From Clostridia bacterium (GTDB lineage Bacteria; Bacillota; Clostridia; Oscillospirales; CAG-272): 64,000 nt of DNA. This document shows positions 19,462 to 45,086 of this stretch, one piece after another. The translations under genes and the position numbers were made by a program. Location: contig JAFUNJ010000009.1 in assembly GCA_017482355.1 (NCBI GenBank), positions 165,229 to 229,228 of the forward strand. The letters are read 5' to 3'. Each line of letters opens with the position of its first letter. The stretch's first letter is position 1. Below the pieces are notes generated by a model. It was given only the letters and a program-made list of their open reading frames with translations. It was not told where the DNA came from and did no database searches.

Positions 19462-19533
19462 ATTGTTACTTCCTTTCTTATTAACAGATTAGGTTTCCCC
19501 ATTACAGTTTATGAGAAAGAAAGTTACGCGCTA

Positions 19534-20235: not shown

Positions 20236-20245
20236 ATTATTCACC

Positions 20246-26246: not shown

Positions 26247-26636
26247 ATGACGTGTAAACGCGGAGATATATTTTATGCCGATCTCAGTCCCGTCGTCGGC
26301 TCGGAGCAGGGAGGACTTCGTCCCGTTCTTATAATACAGAATGACGTCGGTAACAGGTACAGCCCGACGGTCATTGCCGCCGCGATAACCTCACGCACGG
26401 GAAAAAACAAGCTCCCGACGCATATAGGCGTTGAGGCGATGATAAGCTCCGACACATCAAGCGGCGGACTTATGAAGAACTCCGTTATTCTGCTCGAGCA
26501 GGTAAGAACGCTTGACAAAACCCGACTCAAAGAAAAAATGGGGCATCTTGACGACAGCGTTATGAGGCGCGTAAACGAAGCTATTGCCGTCAGCTTCGGG
26601 CTGGGCGGAACTGCACCGAACGAAATAATCGGTTAA
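26247..26636 (+). CDS. mazF: Type II toxin, MazF/PemK family endoribonuclease (EndoA/NdoA-like)
   Basis: [46 protein letters not shown]...KLPTH...[16 protein letters not shown] is close to B. subtilis EndoA as I recall it. Confidence 0.85.
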
Positions 26637-26693: not shown

Positions 26694-26984
26694 ATGAACG
26701 GAGTATTAGACCGTATATGCAAGACAGTCATTGACGAGGTCAGTCCGAGCAAGGTGATCCTCTACGGCGAAAAGAAAAACGGTGAGCAGCTGCGCGAGGC
26801 AAGCTTGCTTATCGTTGTAAAGGGCGACCCGAAGGAAGCCGAAAGACGGCTTTACCGTATTCTCGACTGTGACGTTGCATTCAACCTGCTCGTGTATAGG
26901 GAGGAAGATTTTCTCATTCTCGTAAAGGACGAAACGAGCTACGCGTACAGCATAATGTCGAAGGGCAGGGTGCTTTATGGGTAG
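26694..26984 (+). CDS. Minimal nucleotidyltransferase (MNT)-like protein, catalytic motif apparently degenerate
   Basis: Size (96 aa), VILYGEKKNGE...LLIVV layout and an 8-nt overlap with a HEPN gene fit MNT. The usual G-S and DxD residues are replaced (GE...ASLL). Confidence 0.5.
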   Translation: MNGVLDRICKTVIDEVSPSKVILYGEKKNGEQLREASLLIVVKGDPKEAERRLYRILDCDVAFNLLVYREEDFLILVKDETSYAYSIMSKGRVLYG

Positions 26985-27402
26985 AAGACGCGGAGGTCCG
27001 CACGATAGTAAAAGATATTTCGACTGGCTTGAGCGATCAGAATGTGACCTTGATTCCGCACGCATATTAAAGGATAATAACGGCGACAACTGCAACGCCG
27101 CATTTCACTGTCAGCAGTGCATTGAAAAGGCGCTCAAGGGGTATCTTCTCTTTAAAAACGGCAAGCACGTTGACGGACATAACCTGACATTCCTTTGCAG
27201 GAGTGCCTGCCGAATCGACAGGAAATTCGATGAGTGGCTCGACGAAAGCACTTCGCTCAACAGATACTATATCGAAACCCGATATCCGACCGACGTCGGT
27301 TTTGATATTACCGACGCGGAGCTTGACAAGGTCTATAAAATGGCTTACGATATGTACGTTTTTATTTTTGGCGTCATATCGGACGATGTCGTTAAAAAAT
27401 AA
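26977..27402 (+). CDS. HEPN domain protein
   Basis: AFHCQQCIEKALKGYLL...GHNLTFL...YYIETRYP matches the PF05168-type HEPN pattern (xHdL...sRYP). Confidence 0.7.
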   Translation: MGRRRGGPHDSKRYFDWLERSECDLDSARILKDNNGDNCNAAFHCQQCIEKALKGYLLFKNGKHVDGHNLTFLCRSACRIDRKFDEWLDESTSLNRYYIETRYPTDVGFDITDAELDKVYKMAYDMYVFIFGVISDDVVKK

Positions 27403-27874: not shown

Positions 27875-28756
27875 ATGGCAGACAAACAGTATCTTGTGGC
27901 TCTTACGAATCAGAGCGAGGGCAGAGTAGACGTGCACGACATTGGAAAGGGAGTTATCGACGAATCCTCACTTGTATGGTCACATCAATACGATCAACCT
28001 TCAATTGCCGGAGTAAAGCTCCGCCGTTATAAAGGACGCAAGGTCGTTCTTACGTCCTACGGACACATGAGCGCGGCCATGGTCGATTACGAGACGCACG
28101 AACAGCTCTACCGAACAGACTGTACGGGCGCAAACCCTCATTCCGTTGAGCTTATTCCTTTTGATGACGGCAGATACCTTATCGCAGTTGCGTCGAGCGT
28201 CGGCTTTGACGTTAAGTTTTTCGATCCCGACAAGGGCGGGGCTGCGTCTGTCGGGTGCGTTTATGCGTTCGATGGACACGGAGTGCTTTACGATCCCGAT
28301 GAAAAGTGTCTCTGGATCCTCAGCGGTAACAATCTCTCTAAAAACGAGATAATATGGGAAAACGGCGAGGTGACCGTCAACCGCCTTGCAAAGTACGAAG
28401 TGCCCTTCGGCGGCGGACACGATCTTGCCCCTTATTACGGAGACAAAAACCGCCTTTGGGTGACCTTCCACCGTACGGTATATCAGTTTGATAAGACGAC
28501 GGGCGAGTTCAGGACCGATTATGATTCTTTCCCTCTTATTCACTCCGAGGAAAGAAACGGTCAGATCAAGGGAATCGGCAATTTCGACGATGGCTCGTGT
28601 GTAAAGATATATCCCGACGGCAAGTGCCATCAGTGGACTTCAACTACGATCCGCTTCATGAGGAAAAAGAAAGACGGAAGCTTTGATAAAACCGCTATCA
28701 CGTCGGAGATGGGACATTACTACAAGATCCGCGTGTTTAACGAGAACTATAATTGA
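27875..28756 (+). CDS. Uncharacterised cytoplasmic protein, repetitive beta-strand-rich (beta-propeller-like?)
   Basis: GGAGAA RBS and no signal peptide. Sequence rich in short strand-turn repeats (LVALT, VVLTSYG, YLIAVASS, LWILSG, LWVTF). No family confidently recognised. Confidence 0.4.
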   Translation: MADKQYLVALTNQSEGRVDVHDIGKGVIDESSLVWSHQYDQPSIAGVKLRRYKGRKVVLTSYGHMSAAMVDYETHEQLYRTDCTGANPHSVELIPFDDGRYLIAVASSVGFDVKFFDPDKGGAASVGCVYAFDGHGVLYDPDEKCLWILSGNNLSKNEIIWENGEVTVNRLAKYEVPFGGGHDLAPYYGDKNRLWVTFHRTVYQFDKTTGEFRTDYDSFPLIHSEERNGQIKGIGNFDDGSCVKIYPDGKCHQWTSTTIRFMRKKKDGSFDKTAITSEMGHYYKIRVFNENYN

Positions 28757-28764
28757 GGACAGAT

Positions 28765-29397
28765 ATGAAAAACATACATCTTTTAGGTAAAAAAATTCTT
28801 TTTGATAAGTCGAAGGTGCTTCTCGACTATAAGCCGAATACAGACTGGCTTGACTATTTCGAGCCGAAAAGCGGAGAGTGGAAATACGAGGACGGCGCTC
28901 TTATCGGAATCGAAAACGGAAACAAGGGAGGAATCCTTTTCACGCGCGATTACTATAATGGTAACGTAATGCTTTCCTTCACCGTCTCGACGATACTTCC
29001 CGCAACCCGCGACCTTAACGCCGTTTTCTGCGCAAATTGGGATGACGAGGTTGACTATCTCGGTCTTTCCTACGTCTGCGGTCTTAACGGCTGGTACGAA
29101 AACAAGGCGGGTCTTGAAAGAAATATCGGCTACGGCGTCGGCTCGAACCTCTATTCGACGACCAGCTTGTATAAATACACCCCCGGCACCGAGGTCAGAA
29201 TGACCTGCGGAGCGATAGACGGTCATTCCTTTATGGTCGTTGACGACGTTCTCGTGTCGGAAATGATAGACCCGAATCCGATAAACGGCGGTCACGTCGG
29301 CTTTTCGGCGTATTGCACGATGCTCCGTATAAAGGACATCGAGGTAAGAGAAATATGCTGGGAGCCGTTTGAGCAGAAGTACGATCCGGAGTTCTGA
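28765..29397 (+). CDS. Uncharacterised protein, DUF1080/LamG-like (concanavalin-type lectin/glucanase fold) suspected
   Basis: ATG 28765 (GAGGA RBS). C-terminal GGHVGFSAYCTMLRIKDIEVRE resembles the G-x-I-x-L-Q...F-R-N-I-x-I ending of the DUF1080 (3-keto-disaccharide hydrolase) family. No signal peptide. Confidence 0.4.
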   Translation: MKNIHLLGKKILFDKSKVLLDYKPNTDWLDYFEPKSGEWKYEDGALIGIENGNKGGILFTRDYYNGNVMLSFTVSTILPATRDLNAVFCANWDDEVDYLGLSYVCGLNGWYENKAGLERNIGYGVGSNLYSTTSLYKYTPGTEVRMTCGAIDGHSFMVVDDVLVSEMIDPNPINGGHVGFSAYCTMLRIKDIEVREICWEPFEQKYDPEF

Positions 29398-29800: not shown

Positions 29801-31264
29801 ATGAAGAAGTTTGTTTTACTTCTTATCGCAGCTTGCATGCTGATCACATGCTTCGCTTGCGGTGGCGGCAAGGACGAAGGCAAAAAAGAGCCCGCATGGA
29901 TAGACGATCCTAATCTGAAGCCGACTGAAAACAAGTGGGAAGACCTCCCCGAATACGACGGAGAAGGTACTGACTTCAGAATCAGCACCAGAGGACACTA
30001 CGGTGCAATGGAGGTCGTTGTTGACGACGAAACGTCCGAAAACATCGTTGACCAGGCGCTCGTTCTCAGAAACTCTAAGGTTGAGGACAGATACAGCGTA
30101 TTTATCGTACGTCAGGATAATGACGGTGCTCAGTACGCTCACCTTAACCAGGTTCTTTCCGACTGTACCATGCAGGCTGATAACTTCGACCTCGCTATGA
30201 CCTACGTCTACGAGAGCGCACCCCTTATCACTAACGGATTCGTTCTTAACTGGAACAATCTTAAGTACAACAAGCTCGAAGAGTCTCACTGGATCCACGG
30301 TATGAACGACGAGTTCTCCGTCCGTGACGCGATCTACACTGCTATTTCCAAGATGTGTATTTCTACTATCGGTCAGACTGTTGCTATGCTTTACAACCGT
30401 GACCTCGGTGACCAGTGGAAGGGCGAAGAGTTCTCTTCTGAACTTATCGAGACGATCAACAACGGCGACTGGACCTACGACGAGCTCATGAAGATCGTAA
30501 ACGACTTCAACTGGGACGACGCTACCGGTGACGGTAAGACCGCAGACGACACTTGCGCATTCTTCATGTCTAAGGACTGGATGATCGATACCTGGCATGC
30601 TGCATGGCAGGTTCCCATGATCAAGAACAGCGTTGAAAACGGTCTTGAGAACGTATACATGAGCCAGAAGCTCCTTGACTATACGAGCAGAATGCACACC
30701 ATGTACTACGAGACTCCCGGTATCTTTACCGGTAACGGAGGAGAAGCTTACACTGCATTTGCTACCGGTAAGTCACTCTTCGTTCAGGCAGGACTTAGCG
30801 CTACTATCGGTTACTTCCAGGAAACGATGACTGACTATACATACACCATCATTCCTCAGCCGAAGTTCGACGAGAACCAGGAGAAGTACTACTCTGCAAT
30901 GACCGATAACTACTCTGTAATGTCTATTCCGATCACTGCAGACGCTGACATCGTTTCTCTCCTCGTTGAAGCACTTTCCATCGCTTCTGAGGCACACGTA
31001 TATCCTGCATACAAGTTCGACGCACTTCAGGGTCAGGTCGTTTCCGACGTTGACTCGATGTTCGACATCGTTCTTGATAGCGTTTCTTGGGACATCGGAA
31101 CACTCCTTCACTCCAAGGTTCCTTTCATGGACATGGTTCGTGTAGACGTTAACTTGAACGAAGGAAACAGCCAGATCCAGCAGTCTTACGATGCTATCGC
31201 GGATGACGTTCAGGACGCTCTTGACGAGATAATGACGGCATTCGACGAATTCCAGGAGAACTAA
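29801..31264 (+). CDS. Extracellular solute-binding-type lipoprotein (large family-1 sugar SBP-like), orphan
   Basis: Start moved to ATG 29801 (AAAGGAG RBS). Lipobox LITCFAC-GGG. Motifs typical of ~500-aa clostridial sugar SBPs: RNSKVEDRYSVFI, NFDLAM, GDWTYDELMKIVNDF..DATGDGKTADDTCAF. No permease or ATPase gene adjacent. Confidence 0.6.
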   Translation: MKKFVLLLIAACMLITCFACGGGKDEGKKEPAWIDDPNLKPTENKWEDLPEYDGEGTDFRISTRGHYGAMEVVVDDETSENIVDQALVLRNSKVEDRYSVFIVRQDNDGAQYAHLNQVLSDCTMQADNFDLAMTYVYESAPLITNGFVLNWNNLKYNKLEESHWIHGMNDEFSVRDAIYTAISKMCISTIGQTVAMLYNRDLGDQWKGEEFSSELIETINNGDWTYDELMKIVNDFNWDDATGDGKTADDTCAFFMSKDWMIDTWHAAWQVPMIKNSVENGLENVYMSQKLLDYTSRMHTMYYETPGIFTGNGGEAYTAFATGKSLFVQAGLSATIGYFQETMTDYTYTIIPQPKFDENQEKYYSAMTDNYSVMSIPITADADIVSLLVEALSIASEAHVYPAYKFDALQGQVVSDVDSMFDIVLDSVSWDIGTLLHSKVPFMDMVRVDVNLNEGNSQIQQSYDAIADDVQDALDEIMTAFDEFQEN

Positions 31265-31397
31265 ATACTGATCAGTAATCGCTGACATCGGAAAAGCGGC
31301 GACGCTGCCCGTTAAACGGCTTGCTGACAACTAAGGGGGGGCGACTAAATGTCGCTCCCCTATTGCATTTTCCCAAATAAAACTAAGGGGAACTGAT

Positions 31398-33746
31398 ATG
31401 AAAAGATTTGTCTCAGTAATACTTATTCTTGTCACTATGCTCGCGCTGTTTGCCTGCGCAAACGGCGGCGACGGAGAGGAAGTTGTTACAACAACGAAAG
31501 AAGTGGTGACGGCCAGACCGAAGGACACTAATAAAAATCCGAACACAACAACGCCCTCGACGACGCAGCCGTCAACGACCGTTCCTGCCGTAACCGAGCC
31601 GCCTATAAAAGGCACGTTAGCGAAATTTAATCTCGGTATCGGAACCGTATCAAGCGGTAATTACCGATTTGCCGCGTACGAGCTTTCCGAAAAAAAGTTT
31701 TACGAGCTTGAAGCAGCAAAAAGATCGACATGGAGCTCCGATTATCCCGGTCATCATATGATCTACCGTCCCGATATTTATACAGTCTCAAAATCTGAGG
31801 GAACCGGAATAGTCGACCTTATGTGTACCGCCAATTACGGTTCCGCAGTAGTGTATACCGCATACGATAACGGAAGCGCTACGATCGTTGCTGAGGCATA
31901 TAAGCTTTGGGCGAACGATGTGAAGCTGGATGTTCTTCTTCTCAAGGGCGACGGAACTGTCCTTGCAGAGGAAAGAAATATCAGTAACAAAAAGAATATT
32001 TCCTTTGAGGAAACTGTAAAGCTTGTCCGCGGAGATATTGTATTTCTCCTCGTAAAATACAGTGATACAAGCAAAAAAGAAAGCGGACAGAACGTAGTTC
32101 TTAAAAAATTCGAGGTTTACTTAGACAAACATAAGGTTAGCCAAACGACGAAGCTTCCGTCGGTGACTGACGATAATATAACCGCGTGGGCTACACATTC
32201 CTACGATAAGATCGTTCTCAATGCGCCGAATAACACCGGTACTACGAAATACACGGTCAATATGGCGAAGAACGAGACCGAGGGCTGTCAGCTCGTCGTT
32301 ATGAACTCGGCTTCGTCGGGTTCGAAGAAAGGCAAGCTAGTTCTTGTGTCTGCGCCCGGCGGATCTATCAGCTCGAGTATGTATATGCTCGATAACTACG
32401 AGACTGTGAACGGAAATCAATATACCGATGCCTGCCGTCCCTATTACGGCACGCAGGTCACGATCGGTGCCGGCTCCGTTCTTCCGTTCCTTATTGAGTT
32501 TACGACATCGGCGGCTACCCCTATGGGTGACCAAAAATACGTTTACGCATTCGTGAACGATAAGGGAAAGGCGGTTGCGCTCTTTGAGGTGACCGTTCAC
32601 GTTTGGAATATCACACTGCCGACCGATAAGACCTTCCGCACCGCGGCGGGACTTGATAACTGGATGGCGGTAGTACACGAGGGTAAGCAGAACGCAAGCG
32701 ACGCCGAGTATCTTGAGCTTTTGAACAGCTATTACGGCTTTATGCTCGAGCATAACTTAAGTCCCTATCACTTGCCGGCGGATATTCTGAATAATTATGC
32801 CGACAAATATATGAGCAATCCCGCAGTCACCTTCTTCCTCGTTCCCTGTATTGGCGACGACGGAAATCTGCTTCCCGACTCGGAGATCCTCAAATATTAT
32901 AAGAAGTTGAAGACAAATAAGACCTGGCTTTCCAAGGCAGTGTTCTATCCTCTTGACGAGCCGCATACGAAGGAGCAGGTCGAAAAATATAACCAGTTCT
33001 GCGAGCACCTTCGCAAGCTTTGTCCCGATATTCCCGTAATCGCGCCTTACTATACGAATTTCAAATGGGAAACGGGCATTTCAGGCGCACTCAGCAAGGA
33101 TGACCAGACGAACCACATGTATAACGATTCGGGTATCTGGTGTCCGAAGCTCTGTCTTTGGGACGACGATCAGGCGTACTATGATTTCGGTAAGTACGTA
33201 AGGCCCGATCAGTCTTATGCCGACAGAATGGAGGCAAAGCGCGCCGAGGGAAGTGAGCTCTGGACTTACGTTTGTAACGATCCCGATGATCCGTATTCAC
33301 AGCTTTTTGTTGATACCTTGGGCCAGAATCAGCGTCTGCTCTTCTGGCAGATATATCAGAGAAATATAAGCGGCTTCCTCTATTGGGGAACCAACAAGTG
33401 GGTTCAGTATAACGATTATACTAAGTTTATCGACCCATGGGAAAGTCTCGATAACGGTCTTGTTGACGCAAACGGCAACAAGGTCATAGGCGAGGGCAAC
33501 ATCTTCTATCCCGGCAAGCCCGCAGGTGTTGAAGGACCGGTTGCTTCTCTGCGTCTAAAGTACATCCGCGACGGTATCGATGATATCGAGCTTATGTATC
33601 TTGCGGAAAAGTATCTCGGCGAAAGCTGGGTGAAGGAAAAGACGAACGGCGCGACATCGTCCCTTACTTCCTTCTCTGATGCGGATACTCTTGCTGCAAT
33701 AAGAAAAGAGATCGGTGACGCTCTCGAAAAGAAAATCAACAAATAA
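31398..33746 (+). CDS. DUF4091/GH123-like putative glycoside hydrolase lipoprotein, paralogue P1, with extra N-terminal domain
   Basis: Lipobox LALFAC-ANGG, a T/P-rich linker, then a ~190-aa unique domain. Shared motif ladder follows: AWATHSYDKI, NETEGCQ, HVWNITLP, MLEHNLSPY, FYPLDEPHT, IWCPKLCLWDDD, WTYVCNDPDDPY, LLFWQIYQRNISGFLYW, GEGNIFYPG, LRLKYIRDGIDDIE. Confidence 0.6.
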   Translation: MKRFVSVILILVTMLALFACANGGDGEEVVTTTKEVVTARPKDTNKNPNTTTPSTTQPSTTVPAVTEPPIKGTLAKFNLGIGTVSSGNYRFAAYELSEKKFYELEAAKRSTWSSDYPGHHMIYRPDIYTVSKSEGTGIVDLMCTANYGSAVVYTAYDNGSATIVAEAYKLWANDVKLDVLLLKGDGTVLAEERNISNKKNISFEETVKLVRGDIVFLLVKYSDTSKKESGQNVVLKKFEVYLDKHKVSQTTKLPSVTDDNITAWATHSYDKIVLNAPNNTGTTKYTVNMAKNETEGCQLVVMNSASSGSKKGKLVLVSAPGGSISSSMYMLDNYETVNGNQYTDACRPYYGTQVTIGAGSVLPFLIEFTTSAATPMGDQKYVYAFVNDKGKAVALFEVTVHVWNITLPTDKTFRTAAGLDNWMAVVHEGKQNASDAEYLELLNSYYGFMLEHNLSPYHLPADILNNYADKYMSNPAVTFFLVPCIGDDGNLLPDSEILKYYKKLKTNKTWLSKAVFYPLDEPHTKEQVEKYNQFCEHLRKLCPDIPVIAPYYTNFKWETGISGALSKDDQTNHMYNDSGIWCPKLCLWDDDQAYYDFGKYVRPDQSYADRMEAKRAEGSELWTYVCNDPDDPYSQLFVDTLGQNQRLLFWQIYQRNISGFLYWGTNKWVQYNDYTKFIDPWESLDNGLVDANGNKVIGEGNIFYPGKPAGVEGPVASLRLKYIRDGIDDIELMYLAEKYLGESWVKEKTNGATSSLTSFSDADTLAAIRKEIGDALEKKINK

Positions 33747-33761
33747 CAAACGGAGGAACAA

Positions 33762-35432
33762 ATGAAAAGATCGCTTTTGATCTTGCTTGCGTTGTGTACG
33801 CTATTTACCTTTACTGCCTGCTCGGAAAGCGTCGTCGGCAAGCCGACGGAGAATGAACCTGTAGACGAAAAGCCGAGCGACGATTTTGAGTTCACTGCGC
33901 CGAACGACAATCCGAAAAGTGACGTTCAGGCGAGCGCGTGGACGGCTCATTCCTATACGAAAATAGCGGCAAACGGCACCGTTCCGACGTCAGCTTCGAC
34001 CTCTTATAAGGTCTATTTGGCAAGGGGTGAAACGGAGGGCTGTCAGGTGGCGGTCCGTACCGAATCAAACTGCACGCTGACGCTTAAATGCACCTATAAA
34101 GAGGATAATGATCTCGATTACGAGGTATTTATCCTTGATACAAATTATGATATAAACGGCGCGATCCTTCCCGATCCGGCGAAGCGATATGCGGAGGGAA
34201 CAAGCTTTGACTTAAAGGCGGGACAGACCCTTCCGTTCCTTATCGAATTTACACCTGCAAGCGGTACGAAGGCAGGGCATTATCCTTACGTTTTCGAGCT
34301 TCGCGATCCGTCAGACAAGACTGTTGCGCAGTTCGTGATAATCGTAAGAGTATGGGATATTACGCTTCCCGAGAAGCTGTCGTATCAAAGCTCGGTCACG
34401 GTATCGAAAAAAGATATTGCAGATTACTTTTCCGTAGGTGAAGAAGAGGTCACCGACGAGATCTATCTTAACTACTACAATCTTCTTCTTGAACACAATC
34501 TGAGTGCAAGAGATCTTCCTTACGATATTCTCGATCCGCGCGCCGATGCTTATATGTCGGATCCTCGTGTTACGGCGTTCAGGGTGCCGCATGATGTTTC
34601 GGACGAAACGCTGGAAGCATATTATAAGAAGCTTAAAACGAATACAAAATGGCTCAAAAAGGCGTTTTTCATGCCGGCAAGCGAGCTTTCCACCGAAGAA
34701 GAAATTGAGGCATTTTGCCTTGAAGCAAAACGTCTTCAGGGCATTTGCAGGGCGATAAAGATCACGTGTCCGATGAATCAGGATGTCCAGATTGATCCTC
34801 GCGGCTGGGACCAAGTCAACGCGATGAAGGGCTGGTGTACCCTCTGGTGTCCGAAGCTATGCCTTTGGGACGACGAGATCTCGTACGGCAAGCACGATTA
34901 CGTTCACAGCATGTCATTTGAAGCGAGAATGAGAAAGATGATGAGCGAAGACTTCGGCGTTTGGACGTACCTTTCTTACACGCCGGGCGAGCCGTATACC
35001 GCGCTTGTGGTCGATCACCCGGGACTTGATCAGCGAGTTGTTTTCTGGCAGCAGTATCAGAGAGGAATTCACGGGTTTATATACTGGTCGTCGACTGCCT
35101 GGAGCGTCTTTAACAAGGTCGATCCGTGGCAGAGCGTTGATACCGGTCTTTACGACGAAAAGGGCAATCACGTTTACGGCGACGGCATCTTATTCTATCC
35201 AGGAGAGAGCGTTTCCGATGCTCCGACGGTATCCTTGCGCATGAAGATAATGCGTGACGGTATCGACGATATCGAGCTTCTCAGGTACGCGGCGCAGACG
35301 CTCGGAAACAAATGGGTGAACGAGTGTGTTAACTCGATATCCTCGTCGCTCACGTCGATAGAAGCGACTGACGACGTTTTCGCACAGATCAGAATCGAAA
35401 TCGGAAGCGCGCTTGAAAAAGCACTTCCGTAA
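33762..35432 (+). CDS. DUF4091/GH123-like lipoprotein, paralogue P2 (divergent; putative catalytic DE replaced by SE)
   Basis: Lipobox LFTFTAC-SES. Motifs AWTAHSYTKI, GETEGCQ, RVWDITLPE, LLEHNLSAR, LWCPKLCLWDDE, GDGILFYPG, LRMKIMRDGIDDIE. However FFMPASELST aligns with FY.IDEP.T, and WTYLSYTPGEPY aligns with W.YVCNDP..PY. Confidence 0.6.
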   Translation: MKRSLLILLALCTLFTFTACSESVVGKPTENEPVDEKPSDDFEFTAPNDNPKSDVQASAWTAHSYTKIAANGTVPTSASTSYKVYLARGETEGCQVAVRTESNCTLTLKCTYKEDNDLDYEVFILDTNYDINGAILPDPAKRYAEGTSFDLKAGQTLPFLIEFTPASGTKAGHYPYVFELRDPSDKTVAQFVIIVRVWDITLPEKLSYQSSVTVSKKDIADYFSVGEEEVTDEIYLNYYNLLLEHNLSARDLPYDILDPRADAYMSDPRVTAFRVPHDVSDETLEAYYKKLKTNTKWLKKAFFMPASELSTEEEIEAFCLEAKRLQGICRAIKITCPMNQDVQIDPRGWDQVNAMKGWCTLWCPKLCLWDDEISYGKHDYVHSMSFEARMRKMMSEDFGVWTYLSYTPGEPYTALVVDHPGLDQRVVFWQQYQRGIHGFIYWSSTAWSVFNKVDPWQSVDTGLYDEKGNHVYGDGILFYPGESVSDAPTVSLRMKIMRDGIDDIELLRYAAQTLGNKWVNECVNSISSSLTSIEATDDVFAQIRIEIGSALEKALP

Positions 35433-35443
35433 GGAGGCATATT

Positions 35444-37108
35444 ATGAAAAAGATCATATCCATTCTTCTTATTGTTTGTACGCTGTTTTCTGTGGTTGCT
35501 TGCGGCGGAAAAAACAGTGACGGTTCAAAAAATAATTCCAATGAAAAGCCAAGCGTAGCGGCAAATATTACCTCCTATGCTACGCATTCCTATAATAAGA
35601 TAATTGCGAACATTAAGCCGAAGGGTAATTTGTCCTCGGATTATACGGTATATATGACAAGGGGCGAGACCGAGGGCTGTCAGCTTGTAATTTACAGTGA
35701 TCAGGCGGTAAAAAAGGTTGAGCTTGTTACCGTTTCGGGTGAAAACGAGAGCATTACGACCGAGTTTTTCTCGATGAACAATACTCACAAAATAGGCGGT
35801 AAACAGTATACAGACTCCACCTTCCCCTATGGTAAGAAGGATATTTCGCTTGAAGTGAAAAAGTCGCTTTCATTCGTTATCGACTTCAAAACGACTGCCG
35901 ATACTCCTGCAGGTGAATATAAGTATGTCTTTGCGATCAACGATGCATCGGGAAAGAAGAGCGTGCAGCTTGCAACCTACAACGTGACGGTTCACGTTTG
36001 GGATATAGTTCTTCCCGAGGAAAAGACCTTTGCAACCTCAGCGGGTATTAATACATATCATATCGGCCGTTTCTACGGCGGCGGTTGCGGTCCTGCTCTC
36101 TACAAGCAGTTCTACGATATGCTTCTTGAGCACAATATCTGTGCTCATACGCTCCCGTACGATATTCTCGACTCTCGCGCAGACGAATATATGTCCGATC
36201 CGCGCGTAACGTCGTTCGTGGTTCCGTCCGCCCCGGATGATCTTTCCGATGAGGAAATACTTGCTTATTACAACAAGCTGAAACAAAATCCCGAATGGCT
36301 CAAGAAGGCGATCTTCTATCCTATAGACGAGCCGTCCACTAAGGAGGATCTTGCAAAATATAAGGAGCACTGCGAGCGCCTTAAGCGCCTTGCCCCTGAA
36401 ATTCCCGTAATTTCCCCCTTCTATACGAATATTCAGATGGAAGAGGGCAAGGACCAGGTCGACTTCATGGATCCCTATACCGATCTTTGGTGTCCTAAGC
36501 TCTGCCTTTGGGACGACAGCCAGTCGTACGATCCCTTCCTCGATTACACTCCGAACAAGACCTTTGCCGATAGAATGGCAGAGATGCAGAGCGAGGGCGA
36601 CAGAATGTGGGCATACGTTTGTAACGATCCCATTGATCCTTACGCACAGCTCTTCATCAATACCGCCGGCGTTGAGCAGCGTCTCATGATGTGGCAGCAC
36701 TATCAGCGCAACATCGAGGGCTTCCTCTACTGGGGAACGACAGCTTGGGGATATAAGACAAATGAGCAGACGACATACAATAACATCGACCCATGGGAGA
36801 CCACCTTCAACGGTGTCCGCGACGGAAACGGCAGCCCCGTTTACGGAGAGGGCTTCCTCTTCTATCCGGCAGGTCTTGATATGAGAATGTTTGAGCCGGT
36901 CTCATCTATCCGTATGAAGATACTCCGCGACGGAATCGACGATATCGAGTTCTTCTACGTTGCAGAGAACGCTCTCGGTAAAGAATGGGTAATGAATTAC
37001 GTAAATCAGGCAACTCCGACTCTTACGAGCTACGTGACTAATGAGCAATTTGCAAATATCAGAATTGAAATGGGCAACGCAGTCGAAGCTGCCCTCAAGA
37101 ATAAATAA
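35444..37108 (+). CDS. DUF4091/GH123-like putative glycoside hydrolase lipoprotein, paralogue P3
   Basis: Lipobox LFSVVAC-GGK. Full motif ladder including GETEGCQ, HVWDIVLPEEKTF, FYPIDEPST, LWCPKLCLWDDSQSY, WAYVCNDPIDPYAQLF, GFLYW, IRMKILRDGIDDIE. Confidence 0.6.
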   Translation: MKKIISILLIVCTLFSVVACGGKNSDGSKNNSNEKPSVAANITSYATHSYNKIIANIKPKGNLSSDYTVYMTRGETEGCQLVIYSDQAVKKVELVTVSGENESITTEFFSMNNTHKIGGKQYTDSTFPYGKKDISLEVKKSLSFVIDFKTTADTPAGEYKYVFAINDASGKKSVQLATYNVTVHVWDIVLPEEKTFATSAGINTYHIGRFYGGGCGPALYKQFYDMLLEHNICAHTLPYDILDSRADEYMSDPRVTSFVVPSAPDDLSDEEILAYYNKLKQNPEWLKKAIFYPIDEPSTKEDLAKYKEHCERLKRLAPEIPVISPFYTNIQMEEGKDQVDFMDPYTDLWCPKLCLWDDSQSYDPFLDYTPNKTFADRMAEMQSEGDRMWAYVCNDPIDPYAQLFINTAGVEQRLMMWQHYQRNIEGFLYWGTTAWGYKTNEQTTYNNIDPWETTFNGVRDGNGSPVYGEGFLFYPAGLDMRMFEPVSSIRMKILRDGIDDIEFFYVAENALGKEWVMNYVNQATPTLTSYVTNEQFANIRIEMGNAVEAALKNK

Positions 37109-37120
37109 GCATTAAACAAA

Positions 37121-37173
37121 AGCCGAAACGAAATTCCCGAAAAAATGAGCAAAATGGATTTTTCGTTTCGGCT
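37121..37173 (+). other. Long-stem hairpin in the only sizeable intergenic gap inside the paralogue array
   Basis: AGCCGAAACGAAA (37121-37133) pairs with TTTCGTTTCGGCT (37161-37173) around a ~27-nt loop. There is no U-tract after it, so it is probably not a full terminator. Confidence 0.5.
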
Positions 37174-37197
37174 TGGAGGGCATTATCGGAGGATATT

Positions 37198-38853
37198 ATG
37201 AAAAAACTTTTGCTATTAATTATCACGTTTTCCATGATAATTTCGCTTTTTGCGTGCAATAAGGATGGTGGAAAAAAGGATGACGGCGAAAGCGCAGGAA
37301 ACGGCGAAACCGGAGAAAATGAAGTTATCAACGTAAGTGCGTGGACAACGCATCTGACTGATAAGCAGATAGCTAACGTTAAGCCCAAGGATATAAGCTC
37401 GGGCACTGTTTACGACCTTTATATGATGAGAGGCGAGACTGAGGGCTGTCAGCTTATTATATACAGTGATAAGGACATCAAAAAGGGTGTCATGGAATCG
37501 GAGCTTAATAAGTACGAAGACAAGAACCTGACTTCGGAAATATTCATAATGAACAGATCTCATAACATAAAGGGAAAGAAATGGACGGACTCCGCTGTTC
37601 CTTATTACGGCACGAAGATCGCTTTTGATTCGAGATTGGTAATTCCGTTTATCGTTGAATTTACTACTACAAAGGATACTCCCGCAGGCGATTATACTTA
37701 TAGCTATGAGTTCAAAAATGCGGCAAGCGACGAAGCTTTGGCGAGCTTTACCGTAAACGTACACGTTTGGGATATAGTTCTTCCCGAAGAAAAGACCTTT
37801 GCGACCTCGGCAGGAATAAACGGCGCTCAGATCTCAAGATTTGACAGAGGTTCCGAGATGTATAAAAAGTACTACGATATGCTTCTCGAGCATAATATCT
37901 GCGGACACGTGCTGCCTTACGATATTCTCGACGAGAGAGCAGAGGCGTATATGTCCGATCCTCGCGTAACGTCGTTCGTTATCGGAATCTGGGACGCAAA
38001 GCTTTGGGACGACGAGAAGCTCCTTCAGTATTATAACCGCGTAAAAGAGAACCCCGAATGGTTCAAAAAGGCGATATTCTACGTTATAGACGAGCCGACT
38101 ACCGAGGAAGCACTGGCTAATTACAGGGAATATTGCGACCGTTTTGCAAAGCTTTGCCCCGGAATCGGTGTTATCGCGCCCTTCTATACCAATACCCAGA
38201 CGGGCGTAGGCAAGGACCAGGTAGACGCAATGGCGCCGAGCACGATCCTTTGGTGTCCTAAGCTCTGCCTTTGGGACGACAGCGAGTCCTATGATCCTTT
38301 TCTTGATTACACTCCCGAAAAATCCTTCGCTGAGAGAATGAAGGAATTTCAGGCAGAGGGTGACGTTGTTTGGGCATACGTTTGTAACGCTCCGACGTCT
38401 CCTTACGCACAGCTCTTTATTGATACCGACGGTCTTGTTCAGCGACTTATGATGTGGCAGCACTATCAGCGCGATATCGAGGGCTTCCTTTACTGGGGAG
38501 TCTCGACGTGGGGTTATGACGGCAAGAACGTCGACCCATGGGAGAAGCCGTTCAACGGTGTTGGCGACGGCAATGGAAATCTCGTTTACGGAGAGGGCTT
38601 CCTCTTCTATCCCGGCACACCCATTGGTATTCCGGGACCGATTGCGACGAGCCGTCTTAAGATCCTCCGCGACGGAATCGACGACATCGAGATGTTCTAC
38701 CTTGCAGAAAAGTATCTCGATAAGGAATGGCTGATGGAAAAGATAAATGAGGCAACTCCGTCTCTTACATCCTATACATCTGAAGAAAACTTCTATAAGA
38801 TTCGTAAAGAAATAGGCGACGCGCTTGAAGCGGCACTTAAAAATCAAAAATAA
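37198..38853 (+). CDS. DUF4091/GH123-like putative glycoside hydrolase lipoprotein, paralogue P4
   Basis: Lipobox IISLFAC-NKD. Motif ladder complete (AWTTHLTDKQIANVKPK, GETEGCQ, HVWDIVLPEEKTF, FYVIDEPTT, LWCPKLCLWDDSESY, WAYVCNAPTSPYAQLF, GFLYW, SRLKILRDGIDDIE). Confidence 0.6.
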   Translation: MKKLLLLIITFSMIISLFACNKDGGKKDDGESAGNGETGENEVINVSAWTTHLTDKQIANVKPKDISSGTVYDLYMMRGETEGCQLIIYSDKDIKKGVMESELNKYEDKNLTSEIFIMNRSHNIKGKKWTDSAVPYYGTKIAFDSRLVIPFIVEFTTTKDTPAGDYTYSYEFKNAASDEALASFTVNVHVWDIVLPEEKTFATSAGINGAQISRFDRGSEMYKKYYDMLLEHNICGHVLPYDILDERAEAYMSDPRVTSFVIGIWDAKLWDDEKLLQYYNRVKENPEWFKKAIFYVIDEPTTEEALANYREYCDRFAKLCPGIGVIAPFYTNTQTGVGKDQVDAMAPSTILWCPKLCLWDDSESYDPFLDYTPEKSFAERMKEFQAEGDVVWAYVCNAPTSPYAQLFIDTDGLVQRLMMWQHYQRDIEGFLYWGVSTWGYDGKNVDPWEKPFNGVGDGNGNLVYGEGFLFYPGTPIGIPGPIATSRLKILRDGIDDIEMFYLAEKYLDKEWLMEKINEATPSLTSYTSEENFYKIRKEIGDALEAALKNQK

Positions 38854-38868
38854 TATACGGAGTAAGAA

Positions 38869-40518
38869 ATGAAAAAATTTTTACTTATCATTTTAACGCT
38901 TTCGATGCTTCTTTCACTCTTTGCATGCAATGAAGAAAGCAAAAAGAACGATGGCGAAGGCGGCGGAAAAAACGAAGTAAACAGTGAGATAAAGGTGGAA
39001 GCGTGGACAACGCATCTTACCGATAAGCAGATAGCTAACGTCAAGTCCAAGCCCGAGAACGCAAGCACAGTATATGACCTTTATATGATGAGGGGCGAAA
39101 CAGAGGGCTGTCAGCTTCTGATCTACAGCAGTGCGAAGATCAAAAAGAGCTTTTTGGATTTCGATTCCGATAAGTATGCGGATAAGAGCATAACCGCGAA
39201 TACTTATGTAATGAACGACACGGTCACTATCAAGAGGAAGGAATGGACCGATGCCGCTATGCCTTATTATGGCAGAAAGATCGCTTTTGCGGCGAAAAAG
39301 ACGATTCCTTTTATTGCTGAATTTACAACCACTAAGGATACTCCCGCAGGCGATTATACCTATACCTATGAGTTCAAGGACGGTACGACAAACGAGGTCT
39401 ATGCGACCTTTACGGTAAACGTTCACGTATGGGACATTGTTCTTCCCGAAGAAAAGACCTTTGCTACGTCCGTCGGAATCAACGCTTATCATATCGAAAG
39501 ATTTGATAAGGGCAACAAGATGTATAAGCAGTATTACGACCTTCTTCTTGAACACAATATCTGCGGACATACGCTTCCTTACGATATTATGTCCGAGGAG
39601 GCAGAAGCGTACATGTCCGATCCGAACGTAACGTCGTTCGTTATTGGACTTTGGAGCGCAAACACGTGGACTAATGAGAAGGTAGTTCAGTACTATAACC
39701 GCGTCAAGGAAAATCCCGAATGGTTCAAGAAGGCGTTCTTCTACGTTATCGACGAGCCGTCGACTGACGATAAAATTCAGGAGTATAACGAGATCTGTGA
39801 AAGATTTGCACGCCTTGCCCCCGGAATCGGCGTAATTGCTCCGTTCTATACGAATCAGCAGATGGGTGAGGGTAAGGATCAGGTAGACGCAATGGCTCCG
39901 AAGACCATTCTCTGGTGCCCGAAGCTCTGCCTCTGGGACGACAGTCAGTCATACGAACCCTTCCTCGATTATACGCCGTCAAAGACCTTTGCAGAGAGAA
40001 TGAAGGACTTCCAGAAGGAGGGGGACGTTGTCTGGTCATACGTATGTAACGACCCGATCTCTCCCTACGCACAGCTCTTTATAGATACCGACGGTCTTGT
40101 GCAGCGTCTTATGATGTGGCAGCACTATCAGCGTGAGATCGAGGGATTCCTCTACTGGCAGACTACCTCTTGGGGTTACCGCCAGGAAGGAAGCGATATG
40201 AACCCTTGGGAGAAGGCGTATAACGGCGTGCAGGACGGCGACGGCAGACCCGTTTACGGCGAGGGTTACCTCCTTTATCCCGGAACTCCCGTTGGCTTTG
40301 GCGGACCGGTTGCTTCAATTCGTCTGAAGATCCTCCGCGACGGAATCGACGATATCGAAATGTTCTACCTTGCAGAGAAGTATCTCGACAAGGATTGGCT
40401 TGACTCGAAGATCAATGAGGCAACTCCCTCCCTCACTTCCTATACGTCGGAAGAAAACTTCTACAAAATACGCAAAGAAATAGGCGACGCGCTTGAAGCG
40501 GAGCTTAAAGCAAAATAA
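38869..40518 (+). CDS. DUF4091/GH123-like putative glycoside hydrolase lipoprotein, paralogue P5
   Basis: Lipobox LLSLFAC-NEE. The closest relative of P4 (AWTTHLTDKQIANVKSK, FFYVIDEPST, identical C-terminal SLTSYTSEENFYKIRKEIGDALEA). Confidence 0.6.
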   Translation: MKKFLLIILTLSMLLSLFACNEESKKNDGEGGGKNEVNSEIKVEAWTTHLTDKQIANVKSKPENASTVYDLYMMRGETEGCQLLIYSSAKIKKSFLDFDSDKYADKSITANTYVMNDTVTIKRKEWTDAAMPYYGRKIAFAAKKTIPFIAEFTTTKDTPAGDYTYTYEFKDGTTNEVYATFTVNVHVWDIVLPEEKTFATSVGINAYHIERFDKGNKMYKQYYDLLLEHNICGHTLPYDIMSEEAEAYMSDPNVTSFVIGLWSANTWTNEKVVQYYNRVKENPEWFKKAFFYVIDEPSTDDKIQEYNEICERFARLAPGIGVIAPFYTNQQMGEGKDQVDAMAPKTILWCPKLCLWDDSQSYEPFLDYTPSKTFAERMKDFQKEGDVVWSYVCNDPISPYAQLFIDTDGLVQRLMMWQHYQREIEGFLYWQTTSWGYRQEGSDMNPWEKAYNGVQDGDGRPVYGEGYLLYPGTPVGFGGPVASIRLKILRDGIDDIEMFYLAEKYLDKDWLDSKINEATPSLTSYTSEENFYKIRKEIGDALEAELKAK

Positions 40519-40542
40519 AACATAATAACAAGGAGAAAAGCT

Positions 40543-41994
40543 ATGAAAACCTGGATGACTTACGGTTTTGATAAGATCGTAGCCGACAAGCCGGCGCCGA
40601 ACGAACTCAAAAAGACGTTTACCCTTTACCTTACAAAGGGCGGAAACGGCAACTGTCAGATCGCCGTCAACAGCGATACCGATACCGCGGTTTCTCTTAA
40701 AACGGTTTCGAGCGGCGTGAAGTGCGATATCTTTACAGCAGATCACACTCTTACGATAAACGGTCATCAGTATACCGACCCGATCCTTCCGTACAGCGGC
40801 GAGCCCATTGCCGTCAAGGGCGGAATGACACTTCCGTTCTTCCTTGATTTCAAGGCAGAGGAAGCGGGGGACTATACTGCGACCTTCGAGCTTTGCGAAA
40901 ACGGAAGCGTTGAGACCTTTACCGTTTCGCTTCACGTCTGGAGCTTTGCGCTTCCCGAAAATAAGACTTTTGCGACTGCCTGCGGTGTAAATGCGTACAG
41001 GATCGCAAAATATGATAAGTCCGAGGATGCTCATAAAAGATATTACGACTTTCTCCTTGAGCACTGTATGTGCGGATATGATCTACCCTACGATATTCTT
41101 GACGATAGAGCCGATGCTTATATGTCGGATCCCCGCGTAACGTCCTTTATCGTTCCTTCGGATGATGACGAAAAGACCGTGGCTTACGTAAATAAGATCA
41201 AGAGCAATCCCGTATGGCTAAGCAAGGCGCTCTTCTATTCGATCGACGAGCCGCACACACTTGAGCTTATAGAGACCTTTAAGCAAAAGGTTTCGCGTCT
41301 CAAGAATCTCGCTCCCGAAATTCCTTCGATCGTTCCCGTTTATACCAATCTTCAGGTCGGAGAGGGCAAGGATCAGTTCGACGAAATGGCTCCTTATCTT
41401 GACCTTTGGTGCCCGAAGCTCTGCCTCTGGGAGGACGGTCAGTCCTATACGCCTTTCCTTGACTATACCCCCGAAAAGAGCTTTGAAACGAGAATAAACG
41501 AGGTTATGGATAAGGGTCAGCGAGTTTGGTCTTACGTTTGTAACGACCCGATCACGCCCTACTCGCAGATGTATATCGACACCGACGGCCTTATGCAGCG
41601 TCTTCTTATGTGGCAGCATTATCAGAGAAAGATAATCGGCTTCCTTTACTGGAGCGTTGTTGCCTGGGTAAAAGGTGATAAGACTTCTTGGGAAGAGCCG
41701 TTCAACGGAATCGGCGACGGACAGGGAAAACCCGTTTACGGCTGCGGATATCTCGTATATCCCGGACAGCCCGTCGGATATGACGGACCTGTTGCTACCC
41801 AGCGTCTTAAGATACTTCGTGACGGTTTATCCGACGTTGAGCTTCTTGCTCTGGCAGAGAAGCATTTCGGACGCGAATGGGTAATGGAAAGAGTAAACGA
41901 GGCAACTCCGACACTTACCACTTACACTACTTATGACAGATTTGATGAAATAAGAAAAGAGATCGGTGACGCCCTAGAAGCGGCGCTCAAATAA
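40543..41994 (+). CDS. DUF4091/GH123-like putative glycoside hydrolase, paralogue P6, no signal peptide (cytoplasmic)
   Basis: Starts MKTWMTYGFDKIVADKPAP directly at the conserved W-T-x-x-F-D-K-I motif. GGNGNCQ replaces GETEGCQ. FYSIDEPHT, LWCPKLCLWEDGQSY, WSYVCNDPITPY and QRLKILRDGLSDVE are retained. Confidence 0.6.
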   Translation: MKTWMTYGFDKIVADKPAPNELKKTFTLYLTKGGNGNCQIAVNSDTDTAVSLKTVSSGVKCDIFTADHTLTINGHQYTDPILPYSGEPIAVKGGMTLPFFLDFKAEEAGDYTATFELCENGSVETFTVSLHVWSFALPENKTFATACGVNAYRIAKYDKSEDAHKRYYDFLLEHCMCGYDLPYDILDDRADAYMSDPRVTSFIVPSDDDEKTVAYVNKIKSNPVWLSKALFYSIDEPHTLELIETFKQKVSRLKNLAPEIPSIVPVYTNLQVGEGKDQFDEMAPYLDLWCPKLCLWEDGQSYTPFLDYTPEKSFETRINEVMDKGQRVWSYVCNDPITPYSQMYIDTDGLMQRLLMWQHYQRKIIGFLYWSVVAWVKGDKTSWEEPFNGIGDGQGKPVYGCGYLVYPGQPVGYDGPVATQRLKILRDGLSDVELLALAEKHFGREWVMERVNEATPTLTTYTTYDRFDEIRKEIGDALEAALK

Positions 41995-42026
41995 TCAGGA
42001 TCGATTTTACGAAAAGGAGAACTACT

Positions 42027-43532
42027 ATGAAAGCTTGGATAACTCAGAGTTTTGACAAAATTATCGCTGATATGCCCGCGCCTGAAAAGCTCGATAAGGA
42101 TATCACCCTTTATTTTACGAAGGGCGGAAAGGGCGGCTGTCACGTCGTTGTAAACAGCGACACCGATACGAAGGTATCCCTTAAAGCAATCGCCCCTGAG
42201 GGCGTTAAGTGCAAGATTTATTCCGAGGATCATATCCACGAAATACAGGGTCATCTTTTCGTTGACCCGATCGTTCCTTACGAGGGTGAAGCTCTTTCTG
42301 TTAAGTCAGGAATTTCGCTTCCTTTCTACGTTGATCTCGAAGCAAAAAACGCAGGCGATCACATCGTTACGCTCCTTCTTTGCGACGGTGACGGAAATAC
42401 CGTTGATACCTTTACTGCGAATCTGCACGTCTGTCATTTCTCGCTTCCTGCAGAGAAGAGCTTTGCGACTTCCGTCGGTATCAACAGATGGCATATCGGA
42501 CGCTTTGAACCCGAGCCCGATGCACATAAGTCGTATTATGACCTTCTTCTTGAAAACAATATCTGCGGTCATAATCTTCCGTACGATATCCTCGATCCCC
42601 GCGCAGACGCATATATGTCTGACCCGAACGTAACCTCCTTCGTTATCGGTCTTTGGGAAGCAAAGAACTGGTCGGACGAGAAGATAACCGAATACTTCAA
42701 CAAAGTTAAGAGCAATCCCGAATGGCTAAAGAAGGCGATCATTTACGTTATCGACGAGCCCTCGACCGAGGAAGCACTCGCAAAATACAAGGAGATCTGC
42801 GAAAGATTTGCCCGTCTTTGCCCCGGAATCGGAGTAATTTCTCCTTTCTATACGAACAAACAGATGGGCGATAAGATGGATCAGGTCGACGCTATGGCAC
42901 CCTCTACCATTCTATGGTGTCCCAAGCTCTGTCTTTGGGATGAGAGTCAGTCCTATACCCCTTTCCTTGACTATTCCCCTGAAAAGAGCTTCGGCGAGCG
43001 CTTTAAGGACTTCCAAAAGCGCGGAGATACCGTTTGGGGTTACGTTTGTAATGCACCGCTTACGCCTTATGCACAGCTCTTTATAGATACCGAAGGTCTT
43101 GTGCAGCGACTCATGATGTGGCAGCACTATCAGCGCGATATTACAGGTTTCCTCTACTGGGGGACTACCTCATGGGGCTATCACGGAAACGACGGTGTAA
43201 ACCCCTGGGATACCGCATATAACGGCGTAAGAGGGTGCAACCCCGGCGAGGAGGCAAATGCTGAACTCATTTGCGGAGAAGGATTCCTTATGTATCCAGG
43301 TTCCGTTATCGGACGCCCCGGTGCTATCGGTTCTATCCGTATGAAGATACTCCGCGATGCTCTTGACGATATCGAGCTTCTTGCGCTTGCGGAAAAGTAT
43401 CTTGGCAAGGATTGGGTAATGGCAAAGGTGGACGAGGCAACTCCCACTCTCACCAGCTATACCACTCCCGAAAGATTCATCGAGATCAGAAAAGAGATCG
43501 GTGACGCGCTCGAGGCGGTTGTAAAGCCGTAA
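42027..43532 (+). CDS. DUF4091/GH123-like putative glycoside hydrolase, paralogue P7, no signal peptide (cytoplasmic), mosaic
   Basis: Starts MKAWITQSFDKIIADMPAPE with GGKGGCH. The central region (SFVIGLWEAKNWSDEK...IIYVIDEPSTEEALAKYKEICERFARLCPGIGVISPFYTN) resembles P4/P5 rather than P6/P8. Confidence 0.6.
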   Translation: MKAWITQSFDKIIADMPAPEKLDKDITLYFTKGGKGGCHVVVNSDTDTKVSLKAIAPEGVKCKIYSEDHIHEIQGHLFVDPIVPYEGEALSVKSGISLPFYVDLEAKNAGDHIVTLLLCDGDGNTVDTFTANLHVCHFSLPAEKSFATSVGINRWHIGRFEPEPDAHKSYYDLLLENNICGHNLPYDILDPRADAYMSDPNVTSFVIGLWEAKNWSDEKITEYFNKVKSNPEWLKKAIIYVIDEPSTEEALAKYKEICERFARLCPGIGVISPFYTNKQMGDKMDQVDAMAPSTILWCPKLCLWDESQSYTPFLDYSPEKSFGERFKDFQKRGDTVWGYVCNAPLTPYAQLFIDTEGLVQRLMMWQHYQRDITGFLYWGTTSWGYHGNDGVNPWDTAYNGVRGCNPGEEANAELICGEGFLMYPGSVIGRPGAIGSIRMKILRDALDDIELLALAEKYLGKDWVMAKVDEATPTLTSYTTPERFIEIRKEIGDALEAVVKP

Positions 43533-43555
43533 TTTTTGACACACTGGAGCATAAT

Positions 43556-45052: not shown

Positions 45053-45056
45053 TATA

Positions 45057-45086
45057 AGCCCACCCGAATATCGGGTGGGCTTATTT
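45057..45086 (+). terminator. Rho-independent terminator closing the paralogue array
   Basis: AAGCCCACCCGA-ATAT-CGGGTGGGCTTATTTTT. This is the first strong terminator after 29.8 kb. Confidence 0.85.

Follow-up and report, generated by a model that had tools for sequence, protein, structure and literature searches.

We analyzed a 64,000-nucleotide stretch of DNA (the window) from a Clostridia bacterium (assembly GCA_017482355.1, contig JAFUNJ010000009.1, positions 165,229 to 229,228), centered on P2, the second gene of a tandem array related to glycoside hydrolase family 123 (GH123). The array lies within positions 31398-45084 of the window and comprises eight GH123-like genes, P1 to P8, all on the + strand. 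A Pfam search matched PF13320 (GH123_cat, formerly DUF4091) to 8/8 of the products above the curated cut-off, and their mutual identity is 36 to 48% in an eight-way alignment. P1 (31398-33746), the first gene, encodes a 782-amino-acid (aa) lipoprotein that bears the Asp-Glu (DE) pair of the family and has an extra N-terminal region of about 230 aa. P2 (33762-35432) encodes a 556-aa lipoprotein with the GH123 fold that is devoid of the catalytic-stabilizer Asp. P3 (35444-37108), P4 (37198-38853), and P5 (38869-40518) encode DE-bearing lipoproteins. The remaining products, those of P6 (40543-41994), P7 (42027-43532), and P8 (43556-45052), also bear the DE pair. Lipoprotein signal peptides ending in Cys are present in P1 to P5, and P6 to P8 have no signal peptide and are presumably cytoplasmic. 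Because the genes are only 11 to 89 nucleotides (nt) apart, P2 has its own Shine-Dalgarno sequence, and a strong intrinsic-terminator-like hairpin (45054-45084, + strand; a 14-bp stem followed by a T run) closes the array after P8, P1 to P8 look like one operon. The division between lipoproteins and proteins without signal peptide suggests an extracellular-then-cytoplasmic degradation route.

The P2 open reading frame (ORF) begins with an ATG, 5 nt downstream of a GGAGG Shine-Dalgarno motif read from the sequence (33752-33756, + strand). It starts with a lipoprotein signal peptide, MKRSLLILLALCTLFTFTAC (33762-33821, + strand), whose lipobox Cys is residue 20, and a Cys is also found at the corresponding site of the P2 orthologues. 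In P2 the signal peptide is followed by a flexible linker of some 15 residues, with a predicted local distance difference test score (pLDDT) below 50 at residues 20-33 of the structural model described below. These features suggest that P2 is exposed at the surface through a lipid anchor, in keeping with a preliminary description of the locus, made from the sequence, that had called it a lipoprotein.

That description had also pointed out that P2 reads FFMPASELS where its seven paralogues have (P/V/S)(I/L)DEP, and the eight-way alignment confirmed this. Its placement of FY before the motif in all seven was inexact, since P7 has IY and P8 has VY; the DEP part stood. In P2 the motif spans aa 302-310 (nt 34665-34691), with Ser307 (AGC, 34680-34682) and Glu308 (34683-34685) together (34680-34685, + strand) aligned to the catalytic Asp-Glu of GH123. 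The Asp is therefore replaced but the Glu is kept, so that the earlier statement that the pair was lost is right for one residue and overstated for the other. Two further replacements reported then were found again. CPMNQD (34767-34784, + strand), at the C-terminal end of barrel strand 5, stands for the (A/S/V)P(F/Y/V)YTN of the other seven, and WTYLSYTPGEPY (34962-34997, + strand), in strand 7, for their W.YVCN(D/A)P..PY. The motifs described as retained were all present, namely GETEGCQ, RVWDITLPE, LWCPKLCLWDDE (34842-34877, + strand), which covers strand 6 and the following turn and leaves the subfamily signature intact, GFIYW (35073-35087, + strand) in strand 8, and LRMKIMRDGIDDIE. Tyr403 in WTYLSYTPGEPY is the equivalent of the substrate-recognition Tyr of the GH123 enzymes NgaLy (Y392) and NgaAt (Y495); the Cys-Asn that follows it in DE-type copies has become Ser-Tyr in P2, at positions that are relaxed. 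In GFIYW, Gly438 corresponds to a Gly that is universal in GH123 (NgaLy G427) and Trp442 to the Trp that takes part in substrate recognition (NgaLy W431).

The assignment of the catalytic residues rests on alignments with characterized enzymes. The closest solved structures by sequence are NgaAt (8k2h), NgaCa, NgaDssm, NgaP2, and NgaLy, the GH123 enzymes of Sumida et al. 2024. NgaAt was matched with an E value of 1e-26 by the family profile (hmmsearch) and of 6.5e-13 by P2 alone. In the HMMER alignments both the "..DEP" of the family and the "ASEL" of P2 fall on the "WDEP" of NgaAt, i.e., D401/E402, once a 3-residue offset in numbering between the chain and the paper is allowed for. MAFFT, phmmer, and hmmsearch agree on this region and place no gap around the DE/SE motif. 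The catalytic residues are thus located at the DE motif and not elsewhere, as presumed when IDEP was put forward as the catalytic pair. P2 departs from the catalytic DE motif at the end of barrel strand 4, and no displaced Asp was found within 5 residues on either side of its SE motif. In NgaAt, D401 stabilizes the acetamido group of the substrate and E402 is the acid/base (PMC11087588). Asp-to-Glu or Asp-to-Asn mutants of five GH123 enzymes had little or no activity, even at 10 to 100 times the enzyme; the source data for NgaDssm give signals of 0.04% for D→N and 0.6% for D→E at 10 times the enzyme, and 17% for E→Q (PMC11087588). Because the Asp mutants of five family members are almost inactive, the GH123 hydrolase activity of P2 is predicted to be absent or very low.

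The rest of the enzyme scaffold appears to be in place. P2 scored 43.0 bits against PF13320 (cut-off 23.1; E 4.8e-11; residues 389-509), and a precomputed match to this family exists for its 16 database orthologues except P0014. When the nine universal GH123 residues of PMC11087588 were mapped onto P2, 8/9 were found (D138, W198, E308, Y403, G438, W442, Y479, and R493). These include the equivalents of NgaLy D95, W115, Y392, G427, W431, Y466, and R478, all of them present; the sole missing residue is the stabilizer Asp, with Ser307 at its place. An AlphaFold2 (AF2) model of P2, built on an 85-sequence alignment, had a pLDDT of 93.7 and a predicted template modeling (pTM) score of 0.89. With this model as the query, the top 22 Foldseek ranks were GH123 crystal chains (E 1e-33 to 1e-22; TM score 0.61 to 0.75), with NgaAt (8k2h) at 0.75. 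The model shows an N-terminal β-sandwich and a (β/α)8 barrel, as in GH123, and supports the early view that P2 retains the fold. In it the altered motifs lie on the active-site face, where barrel strands 4, 5, and 7 have their C-terminal ends.

A search of a large protein collection with P2 returned 16 clusters at 93 to 49% identity, and all other matches were at or below 44%. The Asp is absent from 17/17 P2-clade sequences (the 16 clusters and P2), and the DE pair is kept in 104/104 other homologues among the matches listed. As the members of the clade come from independent assemblies, chance or sequencing error was ruled out as the origin of the Asp loss. In a neighbor-joining tree the 17 sequences form one clade with its own stem, whose sister, P0017, is of the DE type. 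Because all 17 lack the Asp, form a monophyletic clade, and have a DE-type sister, the sequences indicate a single, old loss of the Asp on the stem leading to these orthologues. When P0016, the most divergent member, served as the query in turn, no further members of the clade came up, and the one independent Asp-less match was P0163. All 17 sequences of the clade have Glu308. The Ser of the SE motif, whose conservation in orthologues had been proposed as a check, proved hypervariable: residue 307 is S, G, G, G, V, G, W, G, T, T, W, G, G, G, L, F, and T across the clade. A position that is sometimes Trp, Phe, or Leu argues against a conserved acetamido pocket in the canonical pose.

We compared the selective regime of P2 with that of the other copies, as the preliminary description had also suggested. 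The ratio of nonsynonymous to synonymous substitution rates (dN/dS) was computed pairwise by NG86 and YN00 between the window and three close relatives (loci L001, L006, and L007 in our numbering of related loci), for which dS was 0.5 to 1.0; more distant pairs were saturated (dS >1.5) and were left out. P2 gave values of 0.11 to 0.15, and P1 and P3 to P7 gave 0.07 to 0.20 for the same genome pairs. P2 is thus under purifying selection like its DE-bearing neighbors, and because its dN/dS matches theirs, it is not decaying. P1 is the fastest evolving of the eight genes, with 63% identity to the L001 copy and a dN/dS of approximately 0.2.

We then compared constraint between the 17 P2-clade and 68 DE-type sequences in one alignment. 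The DE type has 69 near-invariant sites, and the P2 clade still conserves 53 of them. Positions conserved at a level of at least 90% in the DE type yet free in the P2 clade are Asp307, Tyr339 (of FYTN), Asn406 (of YVCN), Gly397, and Pro142. The most relaxed of the near-invariant sites are 339, 307, 397, 406, 404, 405, 309, 439, and 440, which, 397 excepted, sit at the C-terminal ends of barrel strands 4, 5, 7, and 8; positions 307 and 339 rank 23rd and 24th of 502 in variability within the clade. Differences that have become fixed include Tyr to Met304, Asn to Asp341, and His to Arg196. On the catalytic-face loops, residues conserved specifically in the clade include His277, Trp349, and His382. 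The ratio of conservation in these loops to that in the rest of the barrel is 0.97 to 0.99 for P2, and 0.94 to 1.03 for orthologues of P3, P4, P6, and P7 from the same genomes. The strand WCPKLCLWDD is unchanged in the P2 clade. Because the catalytic center is relaxed while constraint on the whole face equals that in true enzymes and WCPKLCLWDD is intact, the erosion, as read from the alignment, is surgical: the residues of acetamido participation have been released and the remaining cleft has been held. Trp442 is lost only in the three most divergent orthologues, and motif loss progresses through P0014 to P0016.

Related loci were found in Clostridia/Ruminococcaceae metagenome-assembled genomes, e.g., from water-deer colon. 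Their common left flank comprises genes for a P-type ATPase, a Cu-oxidase_4 protein, PemK, an MNT/HEPN pair, a small membrane protein, and a lipoprotein of about 480 aa whose homologues carry SBP_bac_1/8 domains. The number of GH123-like copies across the syntenic loci ranges from 1 to 9. L001 has P1, P2, and seven others, and L003 has P1, P2, and four others. P1 is absent from L004 (P2 and five others), L006, and L007, and in these three P2 directly follows the solute-binding lipoprotein. L005 is reduced to P1 and P2, and L002 has a P2-type gene alone. P2-type genes thus persist where DE copies are few (L005) or gone (L002). A contig scan of genomes for the locus yielded only two loci, both from close relatives.

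A more distant locus, L010 (GCA_965352285.1), was retrieved with P0017, the sister of the DE type. Its P1-like gene is followed directly by a strongly degenerate P2-like lipoprotein gene (L010 12302-13903) that reads FMPMYEPD at the motif. The product has another residue for the Trp of GFLYW and VYAG for FYPG, a deletion follows strand 8, and there is no Pfam match. This gene extends the Asp-less lineage beyond the 17 sequences analyzed. The independent Asp-less protein P0163 is likewise a lipoprotein, with S-E at the motif (FDVYSEPS). It is the first of a tandem pair (L008 4450-7666 and L009 4089-7305), followed by a 56%-identical DE-bearing lipoprotein, and the pair sits behind a gene for a major facilitator superfamily (MFS) transporter and before a GH2 gene. 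The P0163 pair represents a second origin of the Asp-less/DE arrangement and a good comparison case.

Taken together, the data make it highly probable that P2 is not a canonical substrate-assisted GH123 hydrolase and yet is a functional, selected protein. In the scenario that we favor, P2 would descend from a GH123-type β-N-acetylhexosaminidase whose substrate-assisted mechanism is no longer possible, and selection would keep it for a nonhydrolytic job. Lipid anchor and flexible linker would tether it to the cell surface, where the remaining cleft may bind the glycan cut by the co-transcribed surface enzymes P1 and P3 to P5, or a related glycan, without turnover. P2 could then pass substrate to the enzymes of the array and to the solute-binding protein encoded beside it. 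A catalytic face that has stayed conserved, a Tyr and a Trp for substrate recognition that are still present, the tether to the surface, and the repeated occurrence of lipoprotein pairs in which one member lacks the Asp and the other has DE all point to such a lipid-anchored pseudo-glycosidase acting as a lectin-like glycan holder, and we regard the chances that this is what P2 does as about even. Several observations weigh against it. With Trp, Phe, or Leu at position 307, as in some orthologues, the acetamido pocket would be filled, so that a ligand in the canonical −1 pose is impossible across the whole clade. The loss of Trp442 in the three most divergent members and the greater degeneration of the L010 copy hint at progressive erosion of the site. 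The P2-type gene of L002 has neither enzymes nor a solute-binding protein next to it, which does not fit a simple substrate-handover model, and the divergent ATP-binding cassette (ABC)-type solute-binding lipoprotein encoded just upstream of the array is already the usual capture component of Gram-positive bacteria. As 26% of the positions are invariant in the P2 clade, the invariance of Glu308 alone is weak evidence. The catalytic face was delimited by the secondary structure of the model rather than by coordinates, and the constant presence of P2 in the loci is partly circular, as all of them except L010 were retrieved through P2 homologues; its persistence where DE copies have disappeared is real even so.

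The invariance of Glu308 (17/17) and of Tyr403 would also suit a P2 that is still an enzyme, with changed chemistry or substrate, in which Glu308 serves as the acid/base and acetamido participation has been dispensed with. Such an enzyme might have as its substrate a sugar that lacks the 2-acetamido group, Asp341 of the neighboring strand being the nucleophile or base, or carry out transglycosylation on preactivated donors. The clade-specific residues of the catalytic face (among them His277, Trp349, and His382), a face as constrained as that of true enzymes, strong purifying selection, and the fixation of Asp341 in 16/17 sequences are in line with this proposal. Nevertheless, Asp341 was rejected as a clear replacement catalytic acid, as Asp also occupies this position in approximately 13% of the DE-bearing homologues; it is Val in P0006, and no other acidic residue is newly fixed near the P2 active site. 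Variability within the protein is among the highest at positions 307, 339, 340, and 406, next to the supposed reaction center, where a tuned active site would show the reverse, and the divergent members lack Trp442. An altered enzyme is thus unlikely in our view. It is quite improbable that the Asp-less clade as a whole is a new catalytic GH123 variant, be it a glycosynthase-like transglycosylase using oxazoline or activated intermediates from its neighbors, or a nonacetamido hydrolase relying on Asp341. That P2 is instead an ordinary active β-N-acetylhexosaminidase, its Asp being dispensable or misaligned, would account for the retained Glu, Tyr, Trp, and overall fold. This is very improbable given that three programs reproduce the same gap-free motif alignment, that the 5 residues on either side of the motif contain no Asp, that Asp mutants of five family enzymes are almost inactive (PMC11087588), and that two further residues conserved in all DE-type homologues were lost alongside the Asp.

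Adjacency of P1 and P2 in the window, in L001, L003, and L005, and in the distant L010, together with the position of P2 directly after the solute-binding lipoprotein gene in L004, L006, and L007, raises the question of whether P2 works through protein-protein contacts, as a surface scaffold or activator of a catalytic paralogue such as P1 or of the solute-binding protein. A pseudoenzyme of this kind would tolerate both the erosion of the pocket and a bulky residue 307, and there is a precedent among glycosidases, the inactive Arabidopsis β-amylase9 (BAM9), which activates α-amylase3 (AMY3) by protein-protein contact (PMC12046210). However, P2 occurs without P1 in four loci and, in L002, without any neighbor of the set, and a pure protein scaffold would have no need for the cleft-lining motifs that are conserved; we therefore hold this role to be decidedly unlikely. 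Loss of a catalytic residue and the progressive loss of motifs in P0014 to P0016 and in the L010 copy could also be expected of a decaying duplicate on its way to a pseudogene. This is contradicted already by dN/dS values equal to those of the active paralogues, and further by an intact ORF in 17 clusters down to 49% identity, a confident AF2 model, a strong Shine-Dalgarno sequence, and the retention of P2 where DE copies have been lost, which together make it extremely improbable. Among these possibilities, a surface glycan holder remains the reading of P2 that we favor.

GH123 has recently been enlarged to a big family present in all three domains of life. P2 is homologous to Groups 1 and 2 of its "distant subfamily" (NgaCa, 8k2f; NgaAt, 8k2h; PMC11087588), with which it shares the two-domain fold and the acid/base Glu. 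It differs from them in lacking the stabilizer Asp and also the Tyr (strand 5) and Asn (strand 7) of its own subfamily. Six percent of 734 DUF4091 proteins are without the DE pair, none of which was characterized in PMC11087588.

The closest true parallel to P2 is found in the chi-lectins, i.e., the GH18 pseudo-chitinases such as YKL-40 and Ym1. These TIM-barrel proteins likewise come from a substrate-assisted (neighboring-group) family; they have lost a catalytic carboxylate, have held on to fold and cleft, and serve under selection as glycan binders. As in P2, a glycoside hydrolase fold is retained under purifying selection with an essential catalytic residue replaced. The chi-lectins belong to another family, however, and are eukaryotic and secreted; the residue replaced in them is as a rule the acid/base Glu, which P2 has kept, the loss in P2 being that of the acetamido-stabilizing Asp. 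Glycan binding is proven for chi-lectins and is putative for P2.

The preliminary description had likened P2 to SusE and SusF of Bacteroidota, which are tandem immunoglobulin (Ig)/carbohydrate-binding module-like β-sandwiches that sit on the outer membrane and work with the SusC/D transporter. The likeness would lie in the role proposed for P2, that of a lipid-anchored noncatalytic surface protein beside glycan-degrading enzymes. There is no homology, P2 being a GH123 sandwich plus TIM barrel from a monoderm Clostridia. Nor is there a SusC/SusD polysaccharide utilization locus around P2, which neighbors GH123-like, ABC-type solute-binding lipoprotein, sporulation, and toxin-antitoxin genes. 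With neither a shared fold nor a shared genomic context, the comparison may hold as a functional analogy at best. The Gram-positive setting that it assumed was correct, the host being a spore-forming Clostridia. P2, as a presumably inactive glycosidase paralogue kept alongside active ones, also resembles BAM9.

The GH123 family, its mechanism, and its DE-less members have been published, and pseudoenzymes derived from glycosidases are known as a class. The new element is a clade of GH123-like surface lipoproteins in Clostridia that is defined, conserved, under selection, and devoid of the Asp, with a characteristic pattern of focused relaxation. To our knowledge, none of the DE-less GH123 members (about 6%) has been studied, and the precedents we know of for glycan-binding former enzymes come from other enzyme families, not from GH123. 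The locus is a natural experiment, with eight paralogues in one putative operon, one of which belongs to an Asp-less clade that persists in related genomes after the loss of catalytic siblings. Should P2 bind glycan, this would be the first lectin derived from GH123, and it would exemplify the reuse of an enzyme scaffold for a surface glycan-binding protein in a Gram-positive gut bacterium. P2-type genes should then not be counted as hydrolases in censuses of carbohydrate-active enzymes, and P2 might be used as a ready-made binder of β-N-acetylhexosamine-type glycans. If P2 is still catalytic, it would represent a new mechanism in the GH123 family.

Upstream of the array, a gene for a 487-aa lipoprotein (29801-31264, + strand) encodes a divergent ABC-transporter solute-binding protein (SBP), and its counterpart precedes the array in every syntenic locus except L002. 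Pfam and Protein Data Bank (PDB) sequence searches with this protein gave nothing significant; its placement as SBP-like comes from precomputed PF01547/PF13416 (SBP_bac_1/SBP_bac_8) matches in a 91%-identical homologue and in distant ones. A weak terminator-like hairpin (31335-31361) separates the gene from P1. No permease genes adjoin the array, where this orphan SBP-like lipoprotein is the only such component. Within P1, residues ~25-260 consist of a Thr/Pro-rich linker and an extra ~200 aa before the GH123 sandwich. This region had no match in a Pfam search; it could be a carbohydrate-binding module and hence another candidate for a capture role.

Just upstream of the SBP-like gene lie genes for a DUF6528 protein (27875-28756) and then a 214-aa protein (region 27875-29397). 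The latter gave nothing significant in Pfam and PDB sequence searches, with a subthreshold match to a 3-keto-disaccharide hydrolase (concanavalin A-like fold; E 0.006). The 210-aa gene is syntenic in L001 and L003 to L006, and DUF6528 occurs in only some of these loci. Farther left are a PemK/MazF-type toxin gene (26247-26636) and a 96-aa gene overlapping a HEPN-domain gene (26694-27402), likely an MNT-HEPN toxin-antitoxin pair. The PemK and MNT-HEPN genes are found immediately left of the GH123 array in all syntenic loci. Genes for dipicolinate synthase A/B, a sigma factor beside SpoIIGA, and GerA flank the locus (18044-21088 and 45498-46922) and, as sporulation and germination genes, confirm that the host is an endospore-forming member of the Bacillota.

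A cell-surface polysaccharide biosynthesis cluster occupies positions 5336-14726, with several GT1/GT2/GT4 glycosyltransferases, an ABC-2 (Wzm) permease, a Wzt ATPase with a C-terminal glycan-binding domain, and a polysaccharide pyruvyl transferase. The gene at 14873-16051 encodes a protein with a putative Ig (He_PIG) domain and a C-terminal type I dockerin, which implies that the host has a cohesin-dockerin (cellulosome-like) system. Dockerins are also present on some GH123-like database homologues (P0173 and P0174).

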